13,779 bases of DNA from Candidatus Thorarchaeota archaeon (GTDB lineage Archaea > Asgardarchaeota > Thorarchaeia > Thorarchaeales > Thorarchaeaceae). A model generated the notes under the pieces. That model saw only the letters and a program-made list of their open reading frames with translations. It ran no database searches and was not told where the DNA came from. The first letter of the stretch is position 1, and each line of letters starts with the position of its first letter. The translations under genes and the position numbers were made by a program. Positions 3,115-13,779 of the stretch are shown in pieces. The stretch spans positions 1-13,779 of the forward strand of contig PRDH01000052.1 of the NCBI GenBank assembly GCA_003345545.1, given 5' to 3'.

Positions 3115-4425
3115 CTACTTGAATTCAACTTCTACGAGATGAGCACTACAGCTGATGCACGGGTCATAGGAACGAGCAATCTTCTCGAACTCCAGTTCGA
3201 TGTTCTCCTTCTGTTTCCTTGCAAGCATGGTCTGCCCGCCAGTACGTATGAACTCTTCAAGGTCATCCAGGAACATGGCTGTGGGTGTAATGAAGTCAGC
3301 TGCAGTTGTTTTTCCATCCTTGATCTTGTAGTGATGGATGAGTGTCCCTCGGGGTGCCTCCACCGCACCTGTGCCGGCACCAGTTTCTTGGGTTGGCAGT
3401 GCAACCTTTGGAGGTTCACTCGCTAGGAGCTTGTCGACAACCTCTATGACACCCTCGAGCGAGAACACTTGCTCAATTGCCTGAGCAAAGTTGTTGTATA
3501 TAGGATTTCGATGCCAACGTTCGTTGTATAGCTTGTCGTATGCTTTCTTGGCTTCTCCCTTGAAACGTTCGCCCAAGAGGAGCACTCTTGCGATGGCACC
3601 CACGGTGAAAGGTTTGCCATTATAGGCACTTCGTTTTGCAAAGCTGTGCCCAACGACGTGTTCCTTGATGACACTCTTGTAGTCCTCAGCGGGATGCTCT
3701 TTGCCGTCGGATGTGAGGAATGAATCACCGTAGTAGTCATATCCGTCATGCAGTGGTTTGCAGCAGAGGAATTGGGTTTCCCTCTCCATATGGTCAGGGA
3801 CATCAAGTGTTGCAAGTAGGTCAATAGTCTCAATGGCAAAGGGCAATAGCTCTAGGGCCTCTTCCTTCAGTTGTATGAGTTCCTCCCTGCTGGGCAACCT
3901 ACCAAAGCCACCTAGGATTGGGTTTTCGCCATGAATCATCCTGCCTCCCATCAGGCGCATAATCTTGTTCCCGAACTTCTTCAGCTTCAGGGCTTTCACA
4001 ACAGTTTCGCCGTGTTTCTCTGCCATGGCAACGGCATTATTGTATCCTAGGAAATCAGGAAGCGCGAGGAAGTAAATGTGCAGACTGTGACTCTCAAGGA
4101 ACTCTCCATGGTGCATCAGATGTCGATATTCCTGTGTTGCCTGAGGTACCTTGACACCCAATGCCTTTTCGAGGCCTCTGAGTGCCGCGTACTTATGGGA
4201 GAGGTTACAGATGGCACATATCCTGGGGACGATACTCAAGTCCTCCTCTGGAGTCTTGCCAACAACTAGAGTTTCAAAGAGTCTAGGCCCTTCAAGTATT
4301 CGGACCTCGACCTTGCTGATTTTATTGTCCTGTATCTCTACCTTGATTCCTCCGTGGCCTTCAACTCTAGCTAATGGTTCAATCGAAATATCTTGTTTAC
4401 CTGGCATCTCTTCTTCCTCCATCAT
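3115..4425 (-). CDS. hydA: Group 3b [NiFe]-hydrogenase (sulfhydrogenase) large/alpha subunit
   Basis: ARVEGHG, EGPRLFE, L1 motif PRICAICNLSH, EAPRG, L2 motif YDPCISCSAH followed by a 7-aa C-terminal extension. The ATG at 4425 overlaps the delta stop (TGATG). An alternative ATG at 4407 has GGAGG 8 nt upstream. Confidence 0.96.
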   Translation of the reverse strand: MMEEEEMPGKQDISIEPLARVEGHGGIKVEIQDNKISKVEVRILEGPRLFETLVVGKTPEEDLSIVPRICAICNLSHKYAALRGLEKALGVKVPQATQEYRHLMHHGEFLESHSLHIYFLALPDFLGYNNAVAMAEKHGETVVKALKLKKFGNKIMRLMGGRMIHGENPILGGFGRLPSREELIQLKEEALELLPFAIETIDLLATLDVPDHMERETQFLCCKPLHDGYDYYGDSFLTSDGKEHPAEDYKSVIKEHVVGHSFAKRSAYNGKPFTVGAIARVLLLGERFKGEAKKAYDKLYNERWHRNPIYNNFAQAIEQVFSLEGVIEVVDKLLASEPPKVALPTQETGAGTGAVEAPRGTLIHHYKIKDGKTTAADFITPTAMFLDDLEEFIRTGGQTMLARKQKENIELEFEKIARSYDPCISCSAHLVEVEFK

Positions 4426-5210
4426 CAGATTTTCTCGATGTACTTGAGAATCTTGTGTCCTCCATAGTTGCGGATACGTCGAATGATATCCTTCTTTGTC
4501 ATTCCAAAGCTCTCCAAGAGCTTCACATGTTCGGTGAAGTTAGCATCATCACTTGGACCCCAACAGCCCACGCAGGGAAGATTGTGGTTTGGACATGCCG
4601 ATCCGCATCCGCCTAAGGTCAGAGGGCCCAGGCAGAATCGCTTGTCTATCAATAGGCATCGGTTTTCGTTAAGTTTACACTCATGGCATACGGGGTGTGG
4701 GTATGGCTCAGGGATTGCACCGTGAACCAATCTTGAAATGAGCGGGAATGCCTGCTTGGCATCTATTGAACAGCCGGGCAGGTAGTAATCCACTGTCACA
4801 TATGCATCAAGAGGCTTTGCTTCGAGTGGCTCACTAACGAACTGGGCGTTTCCATAGACCTGCTCAAGACGTTTCTCGTACTTAGTATCTCCTGCATACA
4901 TTGCCTGAGGTCCGCCGTTGACAGCGCAGTTGCCTATTGCAACAAGGATCTTTGCCCGCTTTCTGATATCCAGAAGGTGTTCCTTCTCCTCCTCCGTGCT
5001 AATACTCCCTTCCACAAATGCAACATCGAGCGCTTCTTCAATTGGTTTGCTTGATGCCATCACAAATGAATGGATGTTCACTGCTCTGAAGAGGTTCAAG
5101 AGCTCGTCCTCAGTGTGTATAAGCAAGAGCTGGTCTCCTGCGCATCCGGTAAATCCATACACTCCCACTCTCGGTTTCGGACCAACGAGGGCCTTTTGCT
5201 TCCAAGCCAT
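4425..5210 (-). CDS. hydD: Group 3b [NiFe]-hydrogenase small/delta subunit
   Basis: 261 aa. GFTGCAGDQL, VEGSI, IGNCAVNGG, LPGCS, then VCHECK...CLL...CLGPLTLGGCGSACP...PCVGCWG (Fe-S cysteines of group 3 small subunits). Lies between gamma and alpha. Confidence 0.95.
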   Translation of the reverse strand: MAWKQKALVGPKPRVGVYGFTGCAGDQLLLIHTEDELLNLFRAVNIHSFVMASSKPIEEALDVAFVEGSISTEEEKEHLLDIRKRAKILVAIGNCAVNGGPQAMYAGDTKYEKRLEQVYGNAQFVSEPLEAKPLDAYVTVDYYLPGCSIDAKQAFPLISRLVHGAIPEPYPHPVCHECKLNENRCLLIDKRFCLGPLTLGGCGSACPNHNLPCVGCWGPSDDANFTEHVKLLESFGMTKKDIIRRIRNYGGHKILKYIEKI

Positions 5211-5211
5211 C

Positions 5212-6066
5212 TTAGATCAACTCCCTGAAGTGCAATGTGTCCCAGTACGTGAACACGGGTCCATCGATACAAGTGTACAGGTTTTCAAGTACGCAGTGTC
5301 CACACTTTCCAATCCCACACTTCATACGTCGTTCTAAAGTCATCTGAATCTGGTTCTTTGGTATCTTGAGCTTTAGCAGTTCTTGAATCACGAACTTGTA
5401 CATCACTGGCGGACCACAGATGACAGCATTGGTCTTCAGAGGGTCAAGTTCTGGCAGGTCCTTGAAGAGTGCAGTGACCATCCCAGTGTGATGAGCCCAG
5501 TCCTTTTCGTCACCGACCTTCTCGACTGCATATAGACATTCGATGTCTCGTCTCTTGGCTAGCTGCAAGAATTCCTCTTTGAAAAGCATCATATCCGGTG
5601 ACCTCGCGCCATACAGGAAGAAGAAGCGATCGAAATCATCACGATTGTCCAACACATAGTATAGGATTGAGCGCAGAGGCATCACACCTAGTCCACCTGC
5701 GACCATGACGATGTCTTTGTGTTTCATCTGGTCTATCTTGAAACAATTCCCGTAGGGCCCTCTCATGAAAATTACGTCGTTGTCTACTTTCTGATACAGT
5801 GCTTCAGTGACTTTGCCAACCTTGCGTATGCCTAATTCGAGAATGCCTGGACGGCTTGGCGTTGATGCGATACAGAACGGTGCTTCGCCGACGCCTGGTA
5901 ATGACAGCATAATGAACTGCCCTGGCATGTATTGAAAAGACATAGCTCTCTGCATGTCTATGTGCCTAATCTGGAAGAATCTGTGGTCCTTGATTAGGTC
6001 ACGCTGATGGACGATTCTTACAGGTTCGGGTATGAATGGATTTTGATACGTTTCAGAAGCGGTCAT
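5212..6066 (-). CDS. hydG: Group 3b hydrogenase gamma subunit (FAD/NAD(P)-binding, [2Fe-2S])
   Basis: 284 aa. PGQFIML, GEAPF, RGPYGN, VAGGLG, LYGARS, CGPPVM, and MKCGIGKCGHC...C.DGPVF. Start overlaps the beta stop (ATGA, 6063-6066). Confidence 0.95.
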   Translation of the reverse strand: MTASETYQNPFIPEPVRIVHQRDLIKDHRFFQIRHIDMQRAMSFQYMPGQFIMLSLPGVGEAPFCIASTPSRPGILELGIRKVGKVTEALYQKVDNDVIFMRGPYGNCFKIDQMKHKDIVMVAGGLGVMPLRSILYYVLDNRDDFDRFFFLYGARSPDMMLFKEEFLQLAKRRDIECLYAVEKVGDEKDWAHHTGMVTALFKDLPELDPLKTNAVICGPPVMYKFVIQELLKLKIPKNQIQMTLERRMKCGIGKCGHCVLENLYTCIDGPVFTYWDTLHFRELI

Positions 6067-7094
6067 TGCTTCGGCACCTCCCTGGTTGTCAAAGCAGTCG
6101 ACACAGTGATGACATTTATATCAACAGGACATGTTTCCACACACCGTCCGCAGCCAACGCAGCCAGGACGGCCGTATTCATGTCCGAATGACTTGAGTTT
6201 ATGAGTATACCATAGTTTTAATCGGTCTTGTCGAGTTCCACGGAAGTTGTGGCCTCCAGCGACCAAGCTGTAGTCCACGAACATACAGCTGTCCCACATT
6301 CGGTTTCGCTTGCCCTTTGCCTCGTTGGTGACATCAAACACATCGGTGACAGTATAGCAATTGCATGTTGGGCAGACCATCGTGCATTGCCCGCACGATA
6401 AGCATTTGCCCGCGAAGTAGTTCCAAATCTCGCTGTTGTAGCTCAGTTCCATGAGGTCTGGCATGTTATTGAAATCGATTTTCTGTTCGAATTTCGCGTT
6501 TCGTTTCTCTCGCCACTCAACATACCTATCAATGTCTTCGTGGCTCACATTCTCTTCAAAGAACTCCTCCCGTTCGCGTATCATGTCATAGCCTCGACTT
6601 GAGCCTACCCAAACAAGGTAGAACTCCTCCAAGTTGACGAAGAAAAGGTCAAAGCCCTCCTCAATCATGTCCGTATCAGTACTCTTGCACAAAGAGGACT
6701 TACTTGGCATGCATGAGAAACCAATGATAGAAGAATTCTCTCTAAGTCCTGTGTAGTAGGGATCTGCTGGTTTTCCCATGAAAATTTCATCCAGTCTGAG
6801 CAGCCCATGTATGTCGCATGGATGGACTCCGATGATGACTCTTCTCTCGATGACCGAGTAGTCCGGACTAAAGCCTCTCTCATCGAACTGAAGCATCGTG
6901 AACTTCATGGGATGAAACAGCTTCTTCAGTGGAATCATTGGGACCTCATCGGAAATCTCTAGGTCTGAGATCTTCTCCAGCTTTTCAAACCTGAGCACTC
7001 CGTTTCTTCTAACCGGCCCATAAAGAGAACCAAACTTCTCAAGGCTCTCAAGGAACACATCCAAGAATTTTGACTGCATCTTCATTATGCGCAT
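6063..7094 (-). CDS. hydB: Group 3b hydrogenase beta subunit (AsrA-like 4Fe-4S ferredoxin)
   Basis: GVHPCDI, DPYY, CLSCGQCTMVCPTCNC, WDSC, AGGHNFR, CVGCGRCVETCP. ATG at 7094 (MRIMKM, like Thermococcales MRYVKL) is preferred over GTG 7103 because AGGTG lies just upstream as an SD. Confidence 0.94.
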   Translation of the reverse strand: MRIMKMQSKFLDVFLESLEKFGSLYGPVRRNGVLRFEKLEKISDLEISDEVPMIPLKKLFHPMKFTMLQFDERGFSPDYSVIERRVIIGVHPCDIHGLLRLDEIFMGKPADPYYTGLRENSSIIGFSCMPSKSSLCKSTDTDMIEEGFDLFFVNLEEFYLVWVGSSRGYDMIREREEFFEENVSHEDIDRYVEWREKRNAKFEQKIDFNNMPDLMELSYNSEIWNYFAGKCLSCGQCTMVCPTCNCYTVTDVFDVTNEAKGKRNRMWDSCMFVDYSLVAGGHNFRGTRQDRLKLWYTHKLKSFGHEYGRPGCVGCGRCVETCPVDINVITVSTALTTREVPKQ

Positions 7095-7150
7095 GTGCGG
7101 CACCTTGCCCAGCGTAGACCTGTGTATTGGCCCGTTGCGAATGCTACTGA

Positions 7151-8062: not shown

Positions 8063-8195
8063 CGCGCTTGGCAGAGGGGTTTCGTTTCCGCTTACAGACA
8101 GACTGCCTTTGAGTTGATGTTTCTTATGCAAATCTTTTGATGGCTCAAGAAGCAATCAGGACCAAGATGGTCTGCGTCTTTTCATTTCCTCTTTC

Positions 8196-8211
8196 CACTA
8201 ATTGATTAGTG
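8196..8211. promoter_or_regulatory. Palindromic candidate operator upstream of msrA
   Basis: CACTAAT-tg-ATTAGTG is a perfect 7-2-7 inverted repeat 20-35 nt before the msrA ATG. Confidence 0.45.
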
Positions 8212-8230
8212 TTTCCGCAACAGAATTCAT

Positions 8231-8761
8231 ATGGCATACGCCACATTCGGAACTGGCTGCTTCTGGTGTACTGAGGCTGTATTCCAACAGCTGAAAGGTG
8301 TGACCAATGTCGTATCGGGTTATTCAGGTGGTCACGTGGAGAATCCGTCCTACGAACAAGTTTCAACAGGAAAGACTGGTCATGCAGAGGTCTGCCAGAT
8401 CGAGTTCGATCCTGACAAGATATCCTTTGAAGAGCTTCTTGAGGTCTTCTTCAGGACCCACGACCCCACAACACTAAACCGCCAAGGCAATGATATTGGC
8501 ACTCAATATCGGTCAGTCATCTTCTATCACAGTGAAGAGCAGAGGGAAATTGCTGAGCGAGTAAAACATGATCTTGAAACTGGCAAGACATTCAAGGACC
8601 CCATTGTGACTGAAATCGCTGCGTTCAGCAGATTCTACCCTGCTGAGAGCTATCACCGGAACTACTTCAGAAACAATCCCAATCTGGCATACTGCAGGTA
8701 CGTCATTGCACCAAAAGTGCAGAAGTTCGAGAAAGTCTTCAAGTTGAAGCTTGAAAGATAG
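8231..8761 (+). CDS. msrA: Peptide-methionine (S)-S-oxide reductase MsrA
   Basis: GCFWCTE catalytic motif, GYSGG, PSYEQVSTGKTGHAE, HDPTTLNRQGNDIGTQYRS, FYPAESYH, and C-terminal YC. Confidence 0.97.
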   Translation: MAYATFGTGCFWCTEAVFQQLKGVTNVVSGYSGGHVENPSYEQVSTGKTGHAEVCQIEFDPDKISFEELLEVFFRTHDPTTLNRQGNDIGTQYRSVIFYHSEEQREIAERVKHDLETGKTFKDPIVTEIAAFSRFYPAESYHRNYFRNNPNLAYCRYVIAPKVQKFEKVFKLKLER

Positions 8762-8893
8762 AGCGCATAGCCAGTTTCAAAAACCACCCCATCTGACTTT
8801 CTCGTATTACGTTGCTTAATCCTAAATGCCGCCTTTTGCTTGCTGGCAGAGATATGTGCTCCCCACTTAATGTGATTGAGATGTTGGAGTTAT

Positions 8894-8963
8894 ATTACAT
8901 CAGAATTGTACTAGCATTTTAGGATGTAATCACGTGCTCTTGAACATGATTCAAAATATATAG
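8894..8963 (+). promoter_or_regulatory. Inverted repeats plus TATA-like box upstream of the DHFR-family gene
   Basis: ATTACATC-N21-GATGTAAT (8894-8930), TTGAA-catga-TTCAA (8940-8954), then AAAATATATAG (8953-8963). SD GAGGAGG at 9002-9008. Confidence 0.4.
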
Positions 8964-9014
8964 GGAGGAAGACGCAGTGTCAACCATATATTCAAACGGC
9001 AGAGGAGGAAGTGT

Positions 9015-9569
9015 ATGCGAAAACTGATTTTTTCGATGAACATCTCGCTTGACGGCTATGCCGATCACACAGTGGCAATCGCCGATGATGAATTGCATGA
9101 GTTTGCCAGTGATCTGCTAGATTCCGTAGACATCATTTTGTTCGGGCGCGTGACTTATCAGCTCATGGAGAGCTACTGGCCCAAAGCTCGCAAGGATCCA
9201 GGAGCCACAAAGAGCATGATTGAATTTGCCGACAAGATTAACGCCAAGCCCAAGATTGTGTTCTCGCGAACTCTTCAGAAAGCCGAGTGGAACAATACGA
9301 GGTTAGTGAAAGATAATATTGTTGAAGAAGTTGTAAAGTTGAAACGGCAGCGCGGCAAGAATCTGTCGATAGGCGGGATAGGTATGTGCCAAGAGTTTAT
9401 GAAACTCGGTCTGATTGATGAATACTGGCTCTTGGTTCAACCGGTTATCATCGGCAAGGGTAGACGCCTGTTTGAGAGTCTGCGGAATAGAATCAGTCTT
9501 AAACTGGTCGACACAAAGACGTTTAACTCAGGTGTGGTCGTGCTTCATTATCGGGCTGACAAAGAATAA
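9015..9569 (+). CDS. Dihydrofolate reductase-like / RibD C-terminal domain protein
   Basis: 184 aa. MRKLIFSMNISLDGY, LFGRVTYQLM..YWP, KIVFSRTL, LIDEY.L.VQPVIIGKGRRLF, FNSGVVVLHY. Strong SD upstream. Confidence 0.92.
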   Translation: MRKLIFSMNISLDGYADHTVAIADDELHEFASDLLDSVDIILFGRVTYQLMESYWPKARKDPGATKSMIEFADKINAKPKIVFSRTLQKAEWNNTRLVKDNIVEEVVKLKRQRGKNLSIGGIGMCQEFMKLGLIDEYWLLVQPVIIGKGRRLFESLRNRISLKLVDTKTFNSGVVVLHYRADKE

Positions 9570-9748
9570 CACGGAAAGCAGTCTGAGTCATCAGAAGGTC
9601 TTTTCCATGCATATTATCGGGTCGATAGGGCAAAAAGAGAATTCGTTACATCTCGCTCACGGATTAAGGCATATCCATTGCCCCGATTCCGACATCACGC
9701 AAGAGTCTGACTGTCCAAGGCTTACTGTTTCTGGCTGAAACAACACAG

Positions 9749-10234
9749 CTATCGCATTAGAATGAGCGAGTAGAGAGCCCTCTCAAAGAGGCTCATCTGC
9801 ATCTCGACAGAATATGTGTAGACTATACGGACCACAAACGGACCTTCTGCATTGATCTCTATCACAGTCGTTGCGTGTTCTGCGTTGTAGTTGTATCCTG
9901 CACTCATCGCCTGAATTGATGCAACCAGAACGCTCTCAGTAGACATCCAGGTACCATTCTGGTACAGGAATCGAATCTCTGCAGTCCTATTGCAGAATAC
10001 ACTGACCCAAGTCACCTTTGGCCCACCAAATCCGACTTCAACATGGTCCTGGTCGTCAGAAATATAATATGCAGTCCTAGTTGCATCGACTACCTGAGTG
10101 AAAGGGATGGAACAGAATACAGCTACGATGAGAATGCCAACGACCAAGTAGAACTCCGGTGCAAGACGGGTCAGATTGGTCCGCCTCCTTGATTGCACTT
10201 TCATCATCTCGTCACGTAATGCTCTATTATACAT
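9749..10234 (-). CDS. Hypothetical membrane-anchored protein (one N-terminal TM helix, beta-rich domain)
   Basis: Basic N-terminus, TM segment FYLVVGILIVAVFCSIPF, then alternating beta-strand pattern. The real start may be ATG 10207/10204, since a BRE/TATA-like AAAGACTAAATA lies at about 10246-10257 on the minus strand. Confidence 0.7.
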   Translation of the reverse strand: MYNRALRDEMMKVQSRRRTNLTRLAPEFYLVVGILIVAVFCSIPFTQVVDATRTAYYISDDQDHVEVGFGGPKVTWVSVFCNRTAEIRFLYQNGTWMSTESVLVASIQAMSAGYNYNAEHATTVIEINAEGPFVVRIVYTYSVEMQMSLFERALYSLILMR

Positions 10235-10325
10235 CGCATTTTACGTATTTAGTCTTTGAGAATTGTAATTTGTTGGTAGAAACTACTGAATCGTGGCTCT
10301 GGCCGACCACAGTGGATGGGTCTCT

Positions 10326-10365
10326 AACAAGAGCGAGAGTGGGGACAGGTCCCCACAATCTTGTT
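10326..10365 (-). terminator. Strong stem-loop immediately 3' of the ahcY fragment stop codon
   Basis: Plus strand reads AACAAGA-gcgaga-GTGGGGAC-ag-GTCCCCAC-aa-TCTTGTT: a perfect 8-bp inner and 7-bp outer inverted repeat. It abuts the minus-strand TAG at 10366-10368. The structure is certain, the terminator role is inferred. Confidence 0.6.
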
Positions 10366-10467
10366 CTACGTTCCTTCCTTGTAGGCTCTAGCGTAGACCT
10401 CCTGTTCAGGAGTCCACTTGTCAATCTTGGTGCCCAAGGTTCCAAACGTTACAGCAGCCACTTCTCT
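10366..10467 (-). pseudogene. ahcY: Orphan C-terminal fragment (33 codons) of adenosylhomocysteinase
   Basis: REVAAVTFGTLGTKIDKWTPEQEVYARAYKEGT* matches the archaeal-type AhcY C-terminal pattern (E-V-A-x2-K-L-x3-G-x2-I-D-x-L/W-T-x-E-Q-x2-Y-x6-G-T*). Upstream in-frame residues show no AhcY resemblance and there is no room for a ~420-aa gene. Recognised from memory of the family, not by search. Confidence 0.75.
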
Positions 10468-10628
10468 GCAAAACCCATTGGATTTAGGTTTCTGTTTTGA
10501 TCGGGGCAGGTAAATGGCTTCATCGTCATGAAGAGGCGTGAATGAAAAGAATGAGGGACTCGCCATTGGAAAGATAGATAGGGCAGTTGGATGCAGGTAT
10601 CTCAGAGGTTAGTTGGAGGAAACGAGTA

Positions 10629-11558
10629 ATGAGCCAGATACCATACAGTGGAGAGAAGACTGCCAAGATTGGGCCTGTTGAGGTCGCCTATGACACGTTC
10701 GGAAATCCAATATCCCCGCCTATGCTTCTGATCATGGGACTAGGTGCGCAAATGATCCGGTGGGATGAGGCGTTCTGCAAGGCGCTTGCCGCACAGGGTC
10801 ACTGGGTCATCCGCTTCGATAATCGTGACGTGGGGCTATCAACGAAGTTTGATCAAGCAGGCATTCCTGATATCATGTCGCTAATACAGGGAGAGAAGGT
10901 CGATGTGCCCTACAAATTGAAAGACATGGCCGCTGATGCAGTGGGCCTGCTAGACGTGCTTGGAATCAAATCGGCCGATGTTGTAGGTGTTTCAATGGGG
11001 GGAATGATTGCTCAGACTATGGCTATTCATTATCCTAAACGAGTGAGAACATTGACATCAATCATGTCTTCGACGGGCAACCCTAGTCTTCCACAGACAC
11101 GCCCGGAGGCGATGGAGGTTCTGTTTGCACCCGCTGCTACAAATCGGAAGGACTACATCACCAGTGAGCTGGAAGCCGCGAAGGTACTTCATGGACCAAA
11201 ATACCCCTTGAATGAAGAGTATGTCCGCAACTACTCAGAACGATCCTATGACAGATGCTATCATCCACAGGGATTTCCAAGGCAATTGGCAGCCATTCTT
11301 GGTTCTGGGAGCCGAAGTGAAGCTTTAGCTAAAGTGAAGATTCCAACCCTTGTGATTCACGGGAGCGCGGATCCGTTGGTGCCTGTTGAAGGTGGAAAGG
11401 ACACGGCCAAGAGCATACCCGGTGCTAAGCTGCTCATCATCGAGGGAATGGGACACAGTTTTCCAGTGGAGGTTGTACCACAGATACTTCGAGCGATTTT
11501 GCAGCACACCGCTCCGCAGAAAACTAAAAACAGTCGGACTAAGGATAACGAACGGTAG
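10629..11558 (+). CDS. Alpha/beta-fold hydrolase (esterase/lipase-like)
   Basis: LLIMGLGAQM oxyanion region, RFDNRDVGLS, nucleophile elbow GVSMGG, HGSADPLVP (Asp) and GMGH (His). ATG 10629 with GGAGG at 10615-10619 is preferred over TTG 10587. Confidence 0.93.
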   Translation: MSQIPYSGEKTAKIGPVEVAYDTFGNPISPPMLLIMGLGAQMIRWDEAFCKALAAQGHWVIRFDNRDVGLSTKFDQAGIPDIMSLIQGEKVDVPYKLKDMAADAVGLLDVLGIKSADVVGVSMGGMIAQTMAIHYPKRVRTLTSIMSSTGNPSLPQTRPEAMEVLFAPAATNRKDYITSELEAAKVLHGPKYPLNEEYVRNYSERSYDRCYHPQGFPRQLAAILGSGSRSEALAKVKIPTLVIHGSADPLVPVEGGKDTAKSIPGAKLLIIEGMGHSFPVEVVPQILRAILQHTAPQKTKNSRTKDNER

Positions 11559-11861
11559 GTGGCCTTTTAGTTGATCACACGCCTGCCTGATGTGCTCAGA
11601 GAATCCTGTTTCATAGAGCAAATATGAGGAGTGAGAGTCAAATACCATGGAATGAGAGTAAGCGCATCATTGCAGTATGGTACCTTGATACAGTCAGAAG
11701 TCCAACATGCGAATTAGATTCCTGTTTTCCAGCGTGAATAAACGCGAATTGCCTGTATGAATGATGCATACATTCTCTTTCTCCATGCGCGTGTTCGATA
11801 ACGGATTTCTAACACTTTGACAAAAGATTAGGTCTAACGACTACGTTGTAATCATTGTGAC

Positions 11862-12086
11862 GTGACGATGTCTGGTGATGGTAAATCAGGTAGCAGATCT
11901 CTTGTTCCAAAGATACTCCTCTCTCTCATGCCCACTCTTGTGCCAATCTCGATAGCTGCCCGGATTCCGGCCTTTGCCTCTCTCCTCGATGCCCAGAGGG
12001 CTCCCGAAGATAACGTTCCCTGGAACAGGGTCTTCGTGAAGATCCAATCAGAGATCGGTGAACAGGGGTCTGAACTTGCCGCGTGA
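11862..12086 (+). CDS. Small hypothetical protein with a hydrophobic segment
   Basis: 74 aa (GTG 11862 or ATG 11868). Hydrophobic stretch LVPKILLSLMPTLVPISIAARIPAFASLL. Its stop overlaps the probable TTG start of the next gene. Confidence 0.45.
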   Translation: MTMSGDGKSGSRSLVPKILLSLMPTLVPISIAARIPAFASLLDAQRAPEDNVPWNRVFVKIQSEIGEQGSELAA

Positions 12087-13779
12087 GTTCTCGGAGCATC
12101 GCGAGCGATGGAGGCCTCCTGAGCACAGGGAGAACGATGAAAACCCTGAGATGGAGAAGCACTCTGAGCGGATCAGAGAGCTCGTCGATGATGCAATCAG
12201 AGAGCTGAAGCATGAGGAGTCTATCGAGAGGATGCTGAAGGAGTCTATCGAGGAGCTTAGGGAAAAGGAGGCTCGGGCTGACAGGACTCGGGATCTTGTG
12301 CAGGAAGCGATGAAGGAGCTGCATGTTCTTGAGGAAGATCTGGGGCATAGGCTAGAAGATGCCCGAGAGGATAATCACGAGGAGTTCGTCAATGACATGA
12401 AGAGCCAGCTTGAGAGGCCCTCCCTCAAGGATGCCAAGGAGGAGCCTTCAGAGCCTGACCATGATGGAGAAACCTCGGAAACCACAGAGTCCAGCCAGAC
12501 GTATATCGAAGGTGGTGATGGGACTGTCTACGTGGTCGAAACCGGTGGTACGTCTGAGGGTCGCGCAAGGTCCGAGAACGAAGAAGTAGGAGAGGTGCAT
12601 CAAGAACATACACAGAATCCTGAGGACACAATGGAAGAGGAGGAACCGCATGAGTCCGTAAAGGTCAGGAACTGCATTAGCCATCCTGAGCATACAGAAA
12701 CGGATGAGTCGGAAGAAACCGTGGTTCCTTCTGAGTCCACAAGGAGTCAAGAAAAGACAGGGAACGGGGAAGAGGTCTGCCTAGAAGACTGCAGAGAAGA
12801 GGAGTCCAAAGGGGAATTCCAAGAGAAGAGGGTGCTTGTGCCTTCAGAGGTTGAAGCGACCATCTCACCTGCTGATGACGAAACAATCGAAGAGGTGACT
12901 CAACCTATTGAAGAGTCAGCTCGTGAGAATACGGAGGAGAATCATGAAGAGAGTGAGGCGACACTTGAGCAGGGTACGGATGAGGTAGAGGAAACTCCAG
13001 AGAACAATATAGAAGTCGAGCATGAAGAGTCTTGGGAGGCTGATGAACTTGAGGAGCATGATGAAGAGTCAATAGAGGTTCCTGAGGAGATCATCAGAAA
13101 GATTGCGGAGCTTCTGGAGGAACTTGGCGAGCTCGAAGAGGAGGAGGTCGATGAGTCCCGGGTCATCATCGATGCCATAACAGGAGAGCGATACGTCGAC
13201 CACTCTCTGGAGCCTCGTCCGTACTTCTCTGAGACCGAGGAGGATCGTGAGCGCGAGGAAGAGGAACGCATCCGTGAGAGACTCAGAGAGCTGTTTGCGA
13301 GGCTCACTGAGGAGGAGCGTGAGGAGTTCAAGGAGTCAGTGAGGCCTGAGATTGAGTCTGAGAAAGAACTTGAGGAACTGGCTAGACGATGGTGTTCAAG
13401 AGTCGTGAGCCCCGACTTCAAACAAAACCTGGAACATGCGCGTCAGTACATTCGAAATAAGAAACGCGGAGAGGTCCCGCGGCTCATTCGTGAGTTACGT
13501 GCGCTGGAAGTAGAGCAGCAGTGGATGAAGGCTGTGGGCGCCGTTGCCCGTAAGAAGATGCTGAAACAACTAACGACCATGATGCACCACTCAAGAGAGG
13601 CTGACAGTTCTCTCCTCGATTCCAAATCACGTGAGAAGAGTCTGCTCTCATTGCAGAAGTTCATTCCACCGACCTTCGAGAACTTCAAACACGCTCTCAA
13701 AGAGCGGCCTGAGCTCAAGACGAGGAAGGACTACAGGAAGGGATTGCGACTGGCTGAGGTCTACTACAAGGTCAAGGAC
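12076..13779 (+). CDS. Large Glu-rich hypothetical protein, 3'-truncated by the window (>=568 aa)
   Basis: Hand translation of frame +1 shows no stop from 12040 to the window end. Candidate starts are GTG 12058, TTG 12076 (MPREFSEHRERWRPPEH...) and ATG 12151. It is absent from the ORF track because the stop lies outside the window. The Ser/Leu-rich antisense ORFs are its shadow. Confidence 0.9.
   Translation, partial: MPREFSEHRERWRPPEHRENDENPEMEKHSERIRELVDDAIRELKHEESIERMLKESIEELREKEARADRTRDLVQEAMKELHVLEEDLGHRLEDAREDNHEEFVNDMKSQLERPSLKDAKEEPSEPDHDGETSETTESSQTYIEGGDGTVYVVETGGTSEGRARSENEEVGEVHQEHTQNPEDTMEEEEPHESVKVRNCISHPEHTETDESEETVVPSESTRSQEKTGNGEEVCLEDCREEESKGEFQEKRVLVPSEVEATISPADDETIEEVTQPIEESARENTEENHEESEATLEQGTDEVEETPENNIEVEHEESWEADELEEHDEESIEVPEEIIRKIAELLEELGELEEEEVDESRVIIDAITGERYVDHSLEPRPYFSETEEDREREEEERIRERLRELFARLTEEEREEFKESVRPEIESEKELEELARRWCSRVVSPDFKQNLEHARQYIRNKKRGEVPRLIRELRALEVEQQWMKAVGAVARKKMLKQLTTMMHHSREADSSLLDSKSREKSLLSLQKFIPPTFENFKHALKERPELKTRKDYRKGLRLAEVYYKVKD
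12215..12252 (+). repeat. Short in-frame direct repeat
   Basis: AGGAGTCTATCGAG occurs at 12215-12228 and 12239-12252 (24-nt period), encoding ESIE twice. Confidence 0.6.

Follow-up and report, generated by a model that had tools for sequence, protein, structure and literature searches.

What kind of gene opens with a strongly acidic coding region, switches abruptly to a basic one, and runs tail-to-tail into ahcY, the gene of S-adenosylhomocysteine (SAH) hydrolase? The question is raised by positions 12076 to 13779 of a stretch of 13,779 nucleotides, called here the window, which is the entire contig PRDH01000052.1 (C52) of the 82-contig, 2.69-Mb assembly GCA_003345545.1 of a Candidatus Thorarchaeota archaeon (genome G000). 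These positions hold, on the forward strand, a stop-free frame that translates into 568 residues. A preliminary description of the window saw in it a giant two-part protein, and suggested a nucleic-acid-binding function and membership in an undescribed element or a lineage-specific family. Our answer, to which we assign a probability of roughly 0.55, is that the frame makes up the 5' part of a homing-endonuclease gene of LAGLIDADG type, which is free-standing and acts on ahcY in the manner of the WHO elements of yeasts.

The frame reaches the end of the contig, so that the window contains only the first 44% of a full protein of 1,284 residues. The last 125 nucleotides of C52 are identical to the end of contig C15, and 99% identical to the start of a 2.76-kb contig, C62. 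Joining C52 to the reverse strand of C15 yields a single frame of 1,284 codons from the TTG at 12076, or 1,290 from the GTG at 12058; the open reading frame (ORF) can thus be extended as the preliminary description had proposed, and its word "giant" is relative at this full length. The join is supported by three observations: protein P0003, encoded on a 100.7-kb contig of another assembly, has 1,290 residues, the first 568 of which are the same as in the window; among the full-length relatives, which include P0003, P0004 and P0007, those of 1,260-1,268 residues share the same layout; and a contig from an independent run extends 1.3 kb beyond the end of the window. The start at 12076 is favoured because relatives begin with MPRESSE, MPREFSE or VPREFSE. 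The parts of the gene that lie in the window are the following.

12076..13779, forward strand: putative nuclease gene, first 568 codons; the rest is on the reverse strand of C15 of G000, from 75971 down to the stop codon at 73696-73698
12076..13380, forward strand: hyper-acidic head of 435 residues, recognized from residue counts, charge profile, orthologue identity and an Atlas model
13381..13656, forward strand: basic segment with a degenerate, truncated repeat R0, read against repeats R1 and R2 of protein P0002 and from the charge switch
13657..13779, forward strand: start of the helix-turn-helix (HTH)-like repeat R1 (KFIPPTFENF...), cut by the contig end and identical to residues 1-41 of P0002

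In the models, the full protein is laid out as an acidic head (residues 1-435), a basic DNA-binding array (436-956) and a LAGLIDADG nuclease domain (about 957-1247). An AlphaFold2 model of the C-terminal 757 residues, which are the C15 part, was built from an alignment of 23 relatives, and has a mean predicted local distance difference test score (pLDDT) of 88.8. Its residues 430-720, or 957-1247 of the protein, take a monomeric double-LAGLIDADG fold. The structural matches include the TliVMA intein endonuclease (7qsu: Z 17.5, root-mean-square deviation [rmsd] 2.6, 191 aligned residues), PI-PfuI (1dq3, Z 17.4), I-Tsp061I (2dch, Z 16.5) and I-DmoI (Z 15.7); the regulator WhiA (8dy9: Z 16.5, rmsd 3.2, 187 aligned residues) is also among the best, and Foldseek finds 2cw7 with E 4.5e-5. 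The two LAGLIDADG helices read LLARLYAMIGSDGSI and LQFAYLEELIPDEGCV. The first metal-binding acidic residue, D974 (D447 of the model, in IGSDG), is kept in 19 of 19 aligned relatives; the second, E1071 (544 of the model, in LIPDEG), is E in 13 of the 19 and D in the other 6, and is D or E in each of the 51 members of the wider family in which motif 2 was located. The residues G512-D513-K514 are invariant, and sit in a block like the G.P.G.K...IP of intein endonucleases. With the two catalytic acidic residues present in each of the 19 relatives and G-D-K invariant, an active nuclease is to be expected, unlike WhiA; to judge from alignment and model, the LAGLIDADG domain is apparently active.

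The matches to intein structures span their endonuclease parts only, for example residues 192-416 of PI-SceI, and the gene has its own start and stop codons. Among the matches listed, none extends beyond the endonuclease domain into Hint, though a remnant may be present.

The array that precedes the nuclease domain consists of a degenerate repeat, two HTH-like repeats, a mixed alpha/beta domain and a further small helical module. The degenerate repeat, R0, keeps the motifs F..L..A..Y and (V/L)PRLI without the helix-turn-helix core, and the start of R1 is modelled with pLDDT 81-97. Residues 1-430 of the C15 part have a pLDDT of 91.0 and no clear solved relative: Foldseek finds nothing at E<=0.001, its best match being an RNase E subdomain with E 0.15, and the best VIA-align match has Z 5.3. 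A weak resemblance links the two 90-residue repeats to three-helix HTH units of homeodomain type (Z 3.8-4.3), residues 235-318 of the C15 part to winged-helix domains, and residues 335-414 to small HTH domains. Since these structural matches are all weak, the HTH and winged-helix labels are tentative. Searches with curated models and databases gave little more: at the thresholds used, neither half of the protein has a match among the models of Pfam, NCBIfam and PADLOC; residues 501-545 weakly match an intein-containing RtcB model (E 0.059); a PDB sequence search returned nothing relevant; and an Atlas feature search gave no usable match, all its structure rows having TM<=0.21. The predicted succession of HTH-like repeats and a LAGLIDADG domain, as read from AlphaFold2 models and structural matches, agrees with the nucleic-acid-binding architecture that the preliminary description had suspected, LAGLIDADG being one of the candidates that it named.

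What, then, is the acidic head? Its composition is as first described, and a recount gives exactly the same numbers: residues 1-435 contain 127 Glu and 25 Asp, or 34.9% acidic residues with a net charge of -101, and from 13381 on the charge flips, the last 133 residues in the window having 33 K/R versus 16 D/E. Per 50-residue step, the net charge goes from -4 to -21 up to residue 450, and from +3 to +8 from residue 451. Among the 1,155 open frames of at least 300 residues in the genome, the most acidic 300-residue stretch (36%) belongs to this frame. The head has three parts: residues 1-125 show repeated amphipathic helix-like motifs; residues 126-330 are an E/S/T-rich tract with the lowest conservation and the most insertions and deletions; and residues 331-435 are E/R-rich and better conserved, as are some islands elsewhere. 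Compared with three more distant orthologues, the E/S/T tract has 17-34% identity and 26-58 gapped columns, and the nuclease domain, the most conserved part of the protein, 54-69% identity and at most 2 gapped columns. The exception is P0004, a mosaic in which the head is 59-66% identical, residues 331-730 are 84-90% identical, and the middle and nuclease domains 52-65%; the pattern suggests, from sequence identity, an exchange of modules inside the gene.

The Atlas model of the 568 residues of the window has a mean pLDDT of 0.41 and a predicted template modeling score (pTM) of 0.16, values that fit a mostly disordered sequence; the head is probably disordered. Acidic heads recur in the family: 28 listed members have at least 250 extra N-terminal residues, with a median D/E content of 27%, and 16 of the 28 have at least 25%. 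Many long members begin with a loosely conserved peptide rich in Gly/Glu-aromatic-Arg. Tandem DNA repeats were considered as a source of the acidic tract and ruled out, only one weak 18-nucleotide array being present. The preliminary description proposed a DNA-mimic, autoinhibitory or histone-chaperone-like tail. The likeliest role for the head would be to hold the basic array and the nuclease in check as an intramolecular DNA mimic, or to dock a partner, although we give this step clearly less than even odds.

We now turn to the family. A word-indexed search finds seven relatives only, one of them named Candidatus Thorarchaeota; an exhaustive profile search brings up 1,115 cluster representatives at E<=1e-3, of which 254 reach E<=1e-30. 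The members have from 330 to 1,607 residues, and the core is C-terminal in all of them. Named records come from two Asgard groups only, Thorarchaeota and Hermodarchaeota. A match is present in 70 of 400 genomes of the phylum, nearly all of them in two families (49 of 85 genomes and 14 of 19), and in 17 of the 27 genomes of the window's genus. Many of these matches are fragments, contain stop codons, or lie at contig ends. In the window's own genome, C62 carries a second allele of the gene under study, C69 a paralogue with 31% identity, and C47 a fragment. The family is lineage-specific, patchy, multi-copy and often decayed: the expectation of a lineage-specific expanded family, with paralogues in the genome, was borne out, and the protein does not turn out to belong to a housekeeping, single-copy, syntenic family. 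In the literature on LAGLIDADG and homing endonucleases of Asgard archaea or Thorarchaeota, we found no description of it.

Some members have partners. At 5 of the 18 mapped family loci (L033, L035, L037, L040 and L047), a HerA/DUF87-like ATPase of 940-1,060 residues is encoded directly upstream on the same strand; a single query found no homologue of this ATPase in the window's genome. The C69 paralogue (L079; 897 residues, 8150-10843) is followed by an overlapping gene of 270 residues (10831-11643), which has no Pfam match and is 30% identical to the small gene behind a family member in L036; there is no ATPase upstream of the paralogue, and a NosD-like beta-helix protein is encoded on the other strand. 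The window's copy is without ATPase or small partner, and the gene upstream of it encodes an alpha/beta hydrolase. Family genes can cluster: L042 (455-2140 and 5650-7470) and L047 (317-727) have a second member or fragment within a few kb of the first.

Which feature of the locus links this nuclease to ahcY? In the joined contigs, ahcY lies downstream, tail-to-tail with the nuclease gene, and about 17 nucleotides separate the two stop codons. Beyond ahcY are a Lrp-type regulator and sugar-nucleotide enzymes. Upstream are a NiFe-hydrogenase operon, MsrA, a RibD_C protein and the alpha/beta hydrolase. Over the 24 kb made up of the window and the 10 kb that follow it, no ORF was found to encode an integrase or transposase. 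The features of the window upstream of the gene that matter here are the following.

3115-7103, reverse strand: operon of NiFe hydrogenase large subunit, small subunit, FAD/NAD oxidoreductase and 4Fe-4S protein, sulfhydrogenase-like and ordinary-looking
9749..10234, reverse strand: conserved far-flank gene, 161 residues, no Pfam match; directly behind ahcY in G347
10369..10467, reverse strand: relic of the last 33 ahcY codons (REVAAVTFGTLGTKIDKWTPEQEVYARAYKEGT, then stop); tblastn E 3.8e-7, 54.5% identity
10587..11558, forward strand: alpha/beta-hydrolase gene, identified by Pfam and synteny; directly beside ahcY in G355
11559..12075, no strand: spacer between the hydrolase gene and the nuclease gene; the contigs of other strains break off at 11498-11836

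The content behind ahcY varies within the window's genus, as follows.

Family gene present: G352, G345, G340
Family gene reduced to its last 75-110 codons: G351, G360
Hydrolase gene directly beside ahcY: G355
Far-flank gene directly behind ahcY, the "empty" state: G347
Other content: the remaining genomes of the genus

The preliminary description had anticipated a locus that varies between relatives, and the gene is indeed present, reduced to a remnant, or absent behind ahcY. It had also placed the gene inside a candidate island. No multi-gene island surrounds it: this is a single gene between the alpha/beta hydrolase and ahcY, at a cassette hot spot where the alpha/beta-hydrolase gene is an older cassette. 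In another genus, G370 has a 618-residue member, P0008, beside ahcY, and G372 has a remnant. From the loci of the genus, together with those of G370 and G372, the closest relatives of the window's protein are all linked to ahcY. Two members from Hermodarchaeota are tail-to-tail with another conserved gene, that of methylenetetrahydrofolate reductase (MTHFR; L051, 5326-7531; L034, 4299-7681). In L051 the family gene is a remnant, and on its other flank stands a relic of the MTHFR tail with 69% identity.

Relics of this kind are also found behind ahcY. The one in the window, flanked by the hydrolase gene and the far-flank gene, matches the ahcY tail of G343 (blastn, 85.5% over 76 nucleotides, E 2.5e-19); its tail type differs from that of the present ahcY. 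The better-kept relics, in G353 and G343, share one starting point, the codon for Pro347 in the conserved motif GHPSEVMD, those of G356 and of the window being more decayed. A family-wide scan adds many more stand-alone copies of ahcY tails, with starts at codons 345-352.

The second allele offers a comparison of two haplotypes. The contig C62 (L005) is an alternative path to C15:73211-75971: its first 125 nucleotides are the end of C52 with one mismatch, its last 119 are found exactly in C15 inside ahcY, and between these matching ends the two paths are about 85% identical. The divergent tract covers codons 569-1284 of the nuclease gene and codons 303-418 of ahcY. In the latter, C15 and C62 are identical up to codon 303, then differ at 66 of 348 nucleotides (19%), with 9 residue-changing differences. 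P0003 pairs a window-type head with a C62-type end. In contigs of wetland metagenomes, the hydrolase gene (10600-11465) occurs in many variants with about 10% divergence; the first 2.3 kb at the nuclease gene (11444-13779) are nearly invariant in metagenomes of 2018 and 2022, with 1-3 differences.

A further observation concerns ahcY itself. In 11 genomes from 8 Thorarchaeaceae genera, the only ahcY found is made of two ORFs, split after codon 349: L095 (G343:C67, about 1040-1290) and L096-L105 (G383, G331, G337, G330, G327, G317, G370, G389, G386 and G382). The first ORF ends with GHPS-E-K-L-A-F-V-A-A-S-stop, or variants of it, and the changes are mostly at third positions, so that the peptide is kept; the tail, of 68 residues, restarts at Met351 after about 7-11 nucleotides. 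The split point is a few bases from where the relic tails start. A mini-intron of hairpin or bulge-helix-bulge (BHB) type was considered for the 31-nucleotide insertion in ahcY of G343 and G370, and rejected in view of the conserved peptide, the third-position changes, the stop codon and the restart at Met351. We found no paper on a split ahcY.

A locus of similar organization has been described in yeasts. The WHO elements of Torulaspora and Lachancea, from which HO is derived, are nuclease genes located behind FBA1 (Coughlan et al. 2020, PMC7282813). Each homing event gives FBA1 a new 3' end, and the former ends and nuclease genes, now further downstream, decay; at the WHO locus, alleles are 99% identical upstream of the cut and 85% downstream (PMC7282813). 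Four features of that locus are also seen at ahcY, and they are the ground for our reading: a free-standing LAGLIDADG-type gene stands behind a conserved metabolic gene, 3' ends are replaced, old ends and old genes are displaced, and the C15 and C62 alleles are nearly identical upstream of a point and about 85% identical downstream. The differences are clear as well. The target is FBA1 in a yeast, and here it would be ahcY in an archaeon, a host without meiosis. The WHO and HO proteins are intein-derived, with Hint remnants and a zinc finger, whereas the window's protein has HTH-like repeats and a 435-residue acidic head; since no Hint or zinc-finger part is seen in it, we place it outside the WHO/HO protein family.

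The data show the sequence, the predicted fold, the kept catalytic residues, the size and patchiness of the family, its presence or absence at the locus, the common start of the relics and the two haplotypes; cleavage, the target site, homing and the role of the head are inferred. In other cells, the enzyme would cut the ahcY allele at the conserved GHPS|EVMD codons (347-350) or close to them. Repair from the element-bearing allele would then copy a replacement ahcY tail along with the nuclease gene that lies tail-to-tail with it, and the old ahcY tail would be pushed away and decay.

Several observations weigh against this scenario. In many relatives the space behind ahcY is taken by unrelated cassettes with no LAGLIDADG gene among them, which makes another hot-spot mechanism possible. 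The relic in the window lies beyond the hydrolase gene and does not adjoin the nuclease gene, and neither tblastn nor blastn finds a relic ahcY tail in the spacer 11559-12075. The divergent tract of the haplotypes begins 44 codons upstream of the proposed site and ends inside the nuclease gene; plain homologous recombination could also be its source. In G345, a family member stands beside an ahcY of the "PSE" type, the very type proposed to be sensitive. The HTH assignment of the repeats relies on weak matches (Z<=4.6), and no RNA runs are listed as holding the stretch of the window. A discordance between the two ends of ahcY in G340, whose tail has 88.9% protein identity and whose 5' part 83.5%, is weak at the DNA level and was left unused.

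Some of these points would be natural if the hot spot were the work of another agent, be it a site-specific recombinase that escaped notice or plain homologous recombination of the conserved tails, with the nuclease gene as one of many passenger cassettes. Unrelated cassettes and relic tails do occur behind ahcY in relatives without the LAGLIDADG gene, the window's relic does lie beyond the hydrolase gene, and relics with a fixed start would also be expected from an integrase whose att site is within the gene. However, the 24 kb contain no recombinase, the closest relatives of the protein are beside ahcY in two genera and those of Hermodarchaeota beside MTHFR with a relic tail, and remnants of the family gene abut the ahcY stop codon in three further genomes; we judge a mere passenger improbable. 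It is about equally hard to believe that the protein is a domesticated, non-mobile regulator, in which a LAGLIDADG fold and an HTH array only bind DNA, in the manner of WhiA, and the head is a regulatory or protein-recruiting tail. WhiA does join a LAGLIDADG fold to HTH DNA-binding modules and is among the top fold matches, the window's copy is solo, without the ATPase or small partner seen elsewhere, and the first 2.3 kb hardly vary between the metagenome contigs of 2018 and 2022. But WhiA is a conserved single-copy bacterial regulator whose catalytic residues are lost, whereas the present family keeps its catalytic acidic residues and G-D-K block throughout. It is patchy, multi-copy, often broken and often at contig ends, and in most species of the genus the gene is missing or in decay; different sublineages go with the 3' ends of different conserved genes, where relic tails are also found.

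The partners found at other loci raise a third conjecture: that of a conflict or defence module, in the sense of toxin/immunity or anti-element activity, made of a HerA-like ATPase, the LAGLIDADG nuclease and a small inhibitor. The window's copy would then be an orphan effector, cargo at a recombination hot spot after the loss of its partners. The five loci with an upstream ATPase speak for it, and so does the overlapping small gene of the C69 paralogue, homologous to one behind another member. Yet the one query for the ATPase came back empty in the window's genome, the 17 or so nucleotides before ahcY are too short for a small partner, no PADLOC model matches the nuclease protein, and the ahcY-linked clade spans two genera; such an origin seems to us unlikely. 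We retain, at the odds given at the outset, a homing endonuclease that would act on ahcY.

How does this protein compare with other known nucleases? The archaeal enzymes I-DmoI and I-Tsp061I, of rRNA introns, and PI-PfuI and TliVMA, of inteins, have the same one-chain double-LAGLIDADG fold, the acidic residues and a block like G.P.G.K...IP; they have 170-540 residues and are located inside an intron or an intein, whereas the window's protein is free-standing, with 1,284 residues, about 950 of them extra at the N-terminus. The mORFs of fungal mitochondria, as at atp6 of Allomyces and Glomus, are endonuclease ORFs at the 3' end of a gene that bring their own replacement end; they differ in being organellar, with small proteins and no acidic head. 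By its description, a published Asgard precedent is the element HeimM2 of Candidatus Heimdallarchaeum, which is integrase-free, encodes a homing-endonuclease homologue and occupies a fixed site beside the 16S rRNA gene; its authors propose a co-option of the nuclease into site-specific integration (Wu et al. 2022, PMC8813620). The lineage and the target are other than those of the window's gene, the likeness is one of description, and the text consulted mentions no acidic head, HTH array or tail replacement.

Taken at the strength of alignments and models, the gene appears to be a LAGLIDADG homing endonuclease working in the WHO manner, with a combination of acidic head and HTH array that seems unprecedented. 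New here are the solo copy, an ahcY target common to two genera, the pair of haplotypes in the population and the split ahcY. Among prokaryotes, a nuclease with an acidic head of 435 residues is unusual, and it offers a clean case on which to test intramolecular DNA mimicry.

If the reading is correct, a large family of homing endonucleases, free-standing and unseen by curated models, exists in Asgard archaea. With no integrase involved, the ends of essential metabolic genes would be remodelled and cargo imported, a kind of gene flow so far demonstrated in yeasts with WHO and HO; the "integrase-free cassettes" of these genomes would have a named enzyme, and the enzyme a defined target, codons 347-350 of ahcY. 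The family would also be a source of new long-site nucleases with extra DNA-binding arrays. More tentatively, and with less assurance than for the single locus, we conjecture that acid-headed HTH-LAGLIDADG proteins are the mobility enzymes of queues of integrase-free cassettes behind conserved genes of Thorarchaeota. Each would cut a fixed site in a housekeeping gene, repair would bring a new tail together with cargo, and ahcY, in about one sixth of the genomes, is split at that site. Such proteins would be an archaeal counterpart of WHO and HO, found in the closest prokaryotic relatives of eukaryotes.

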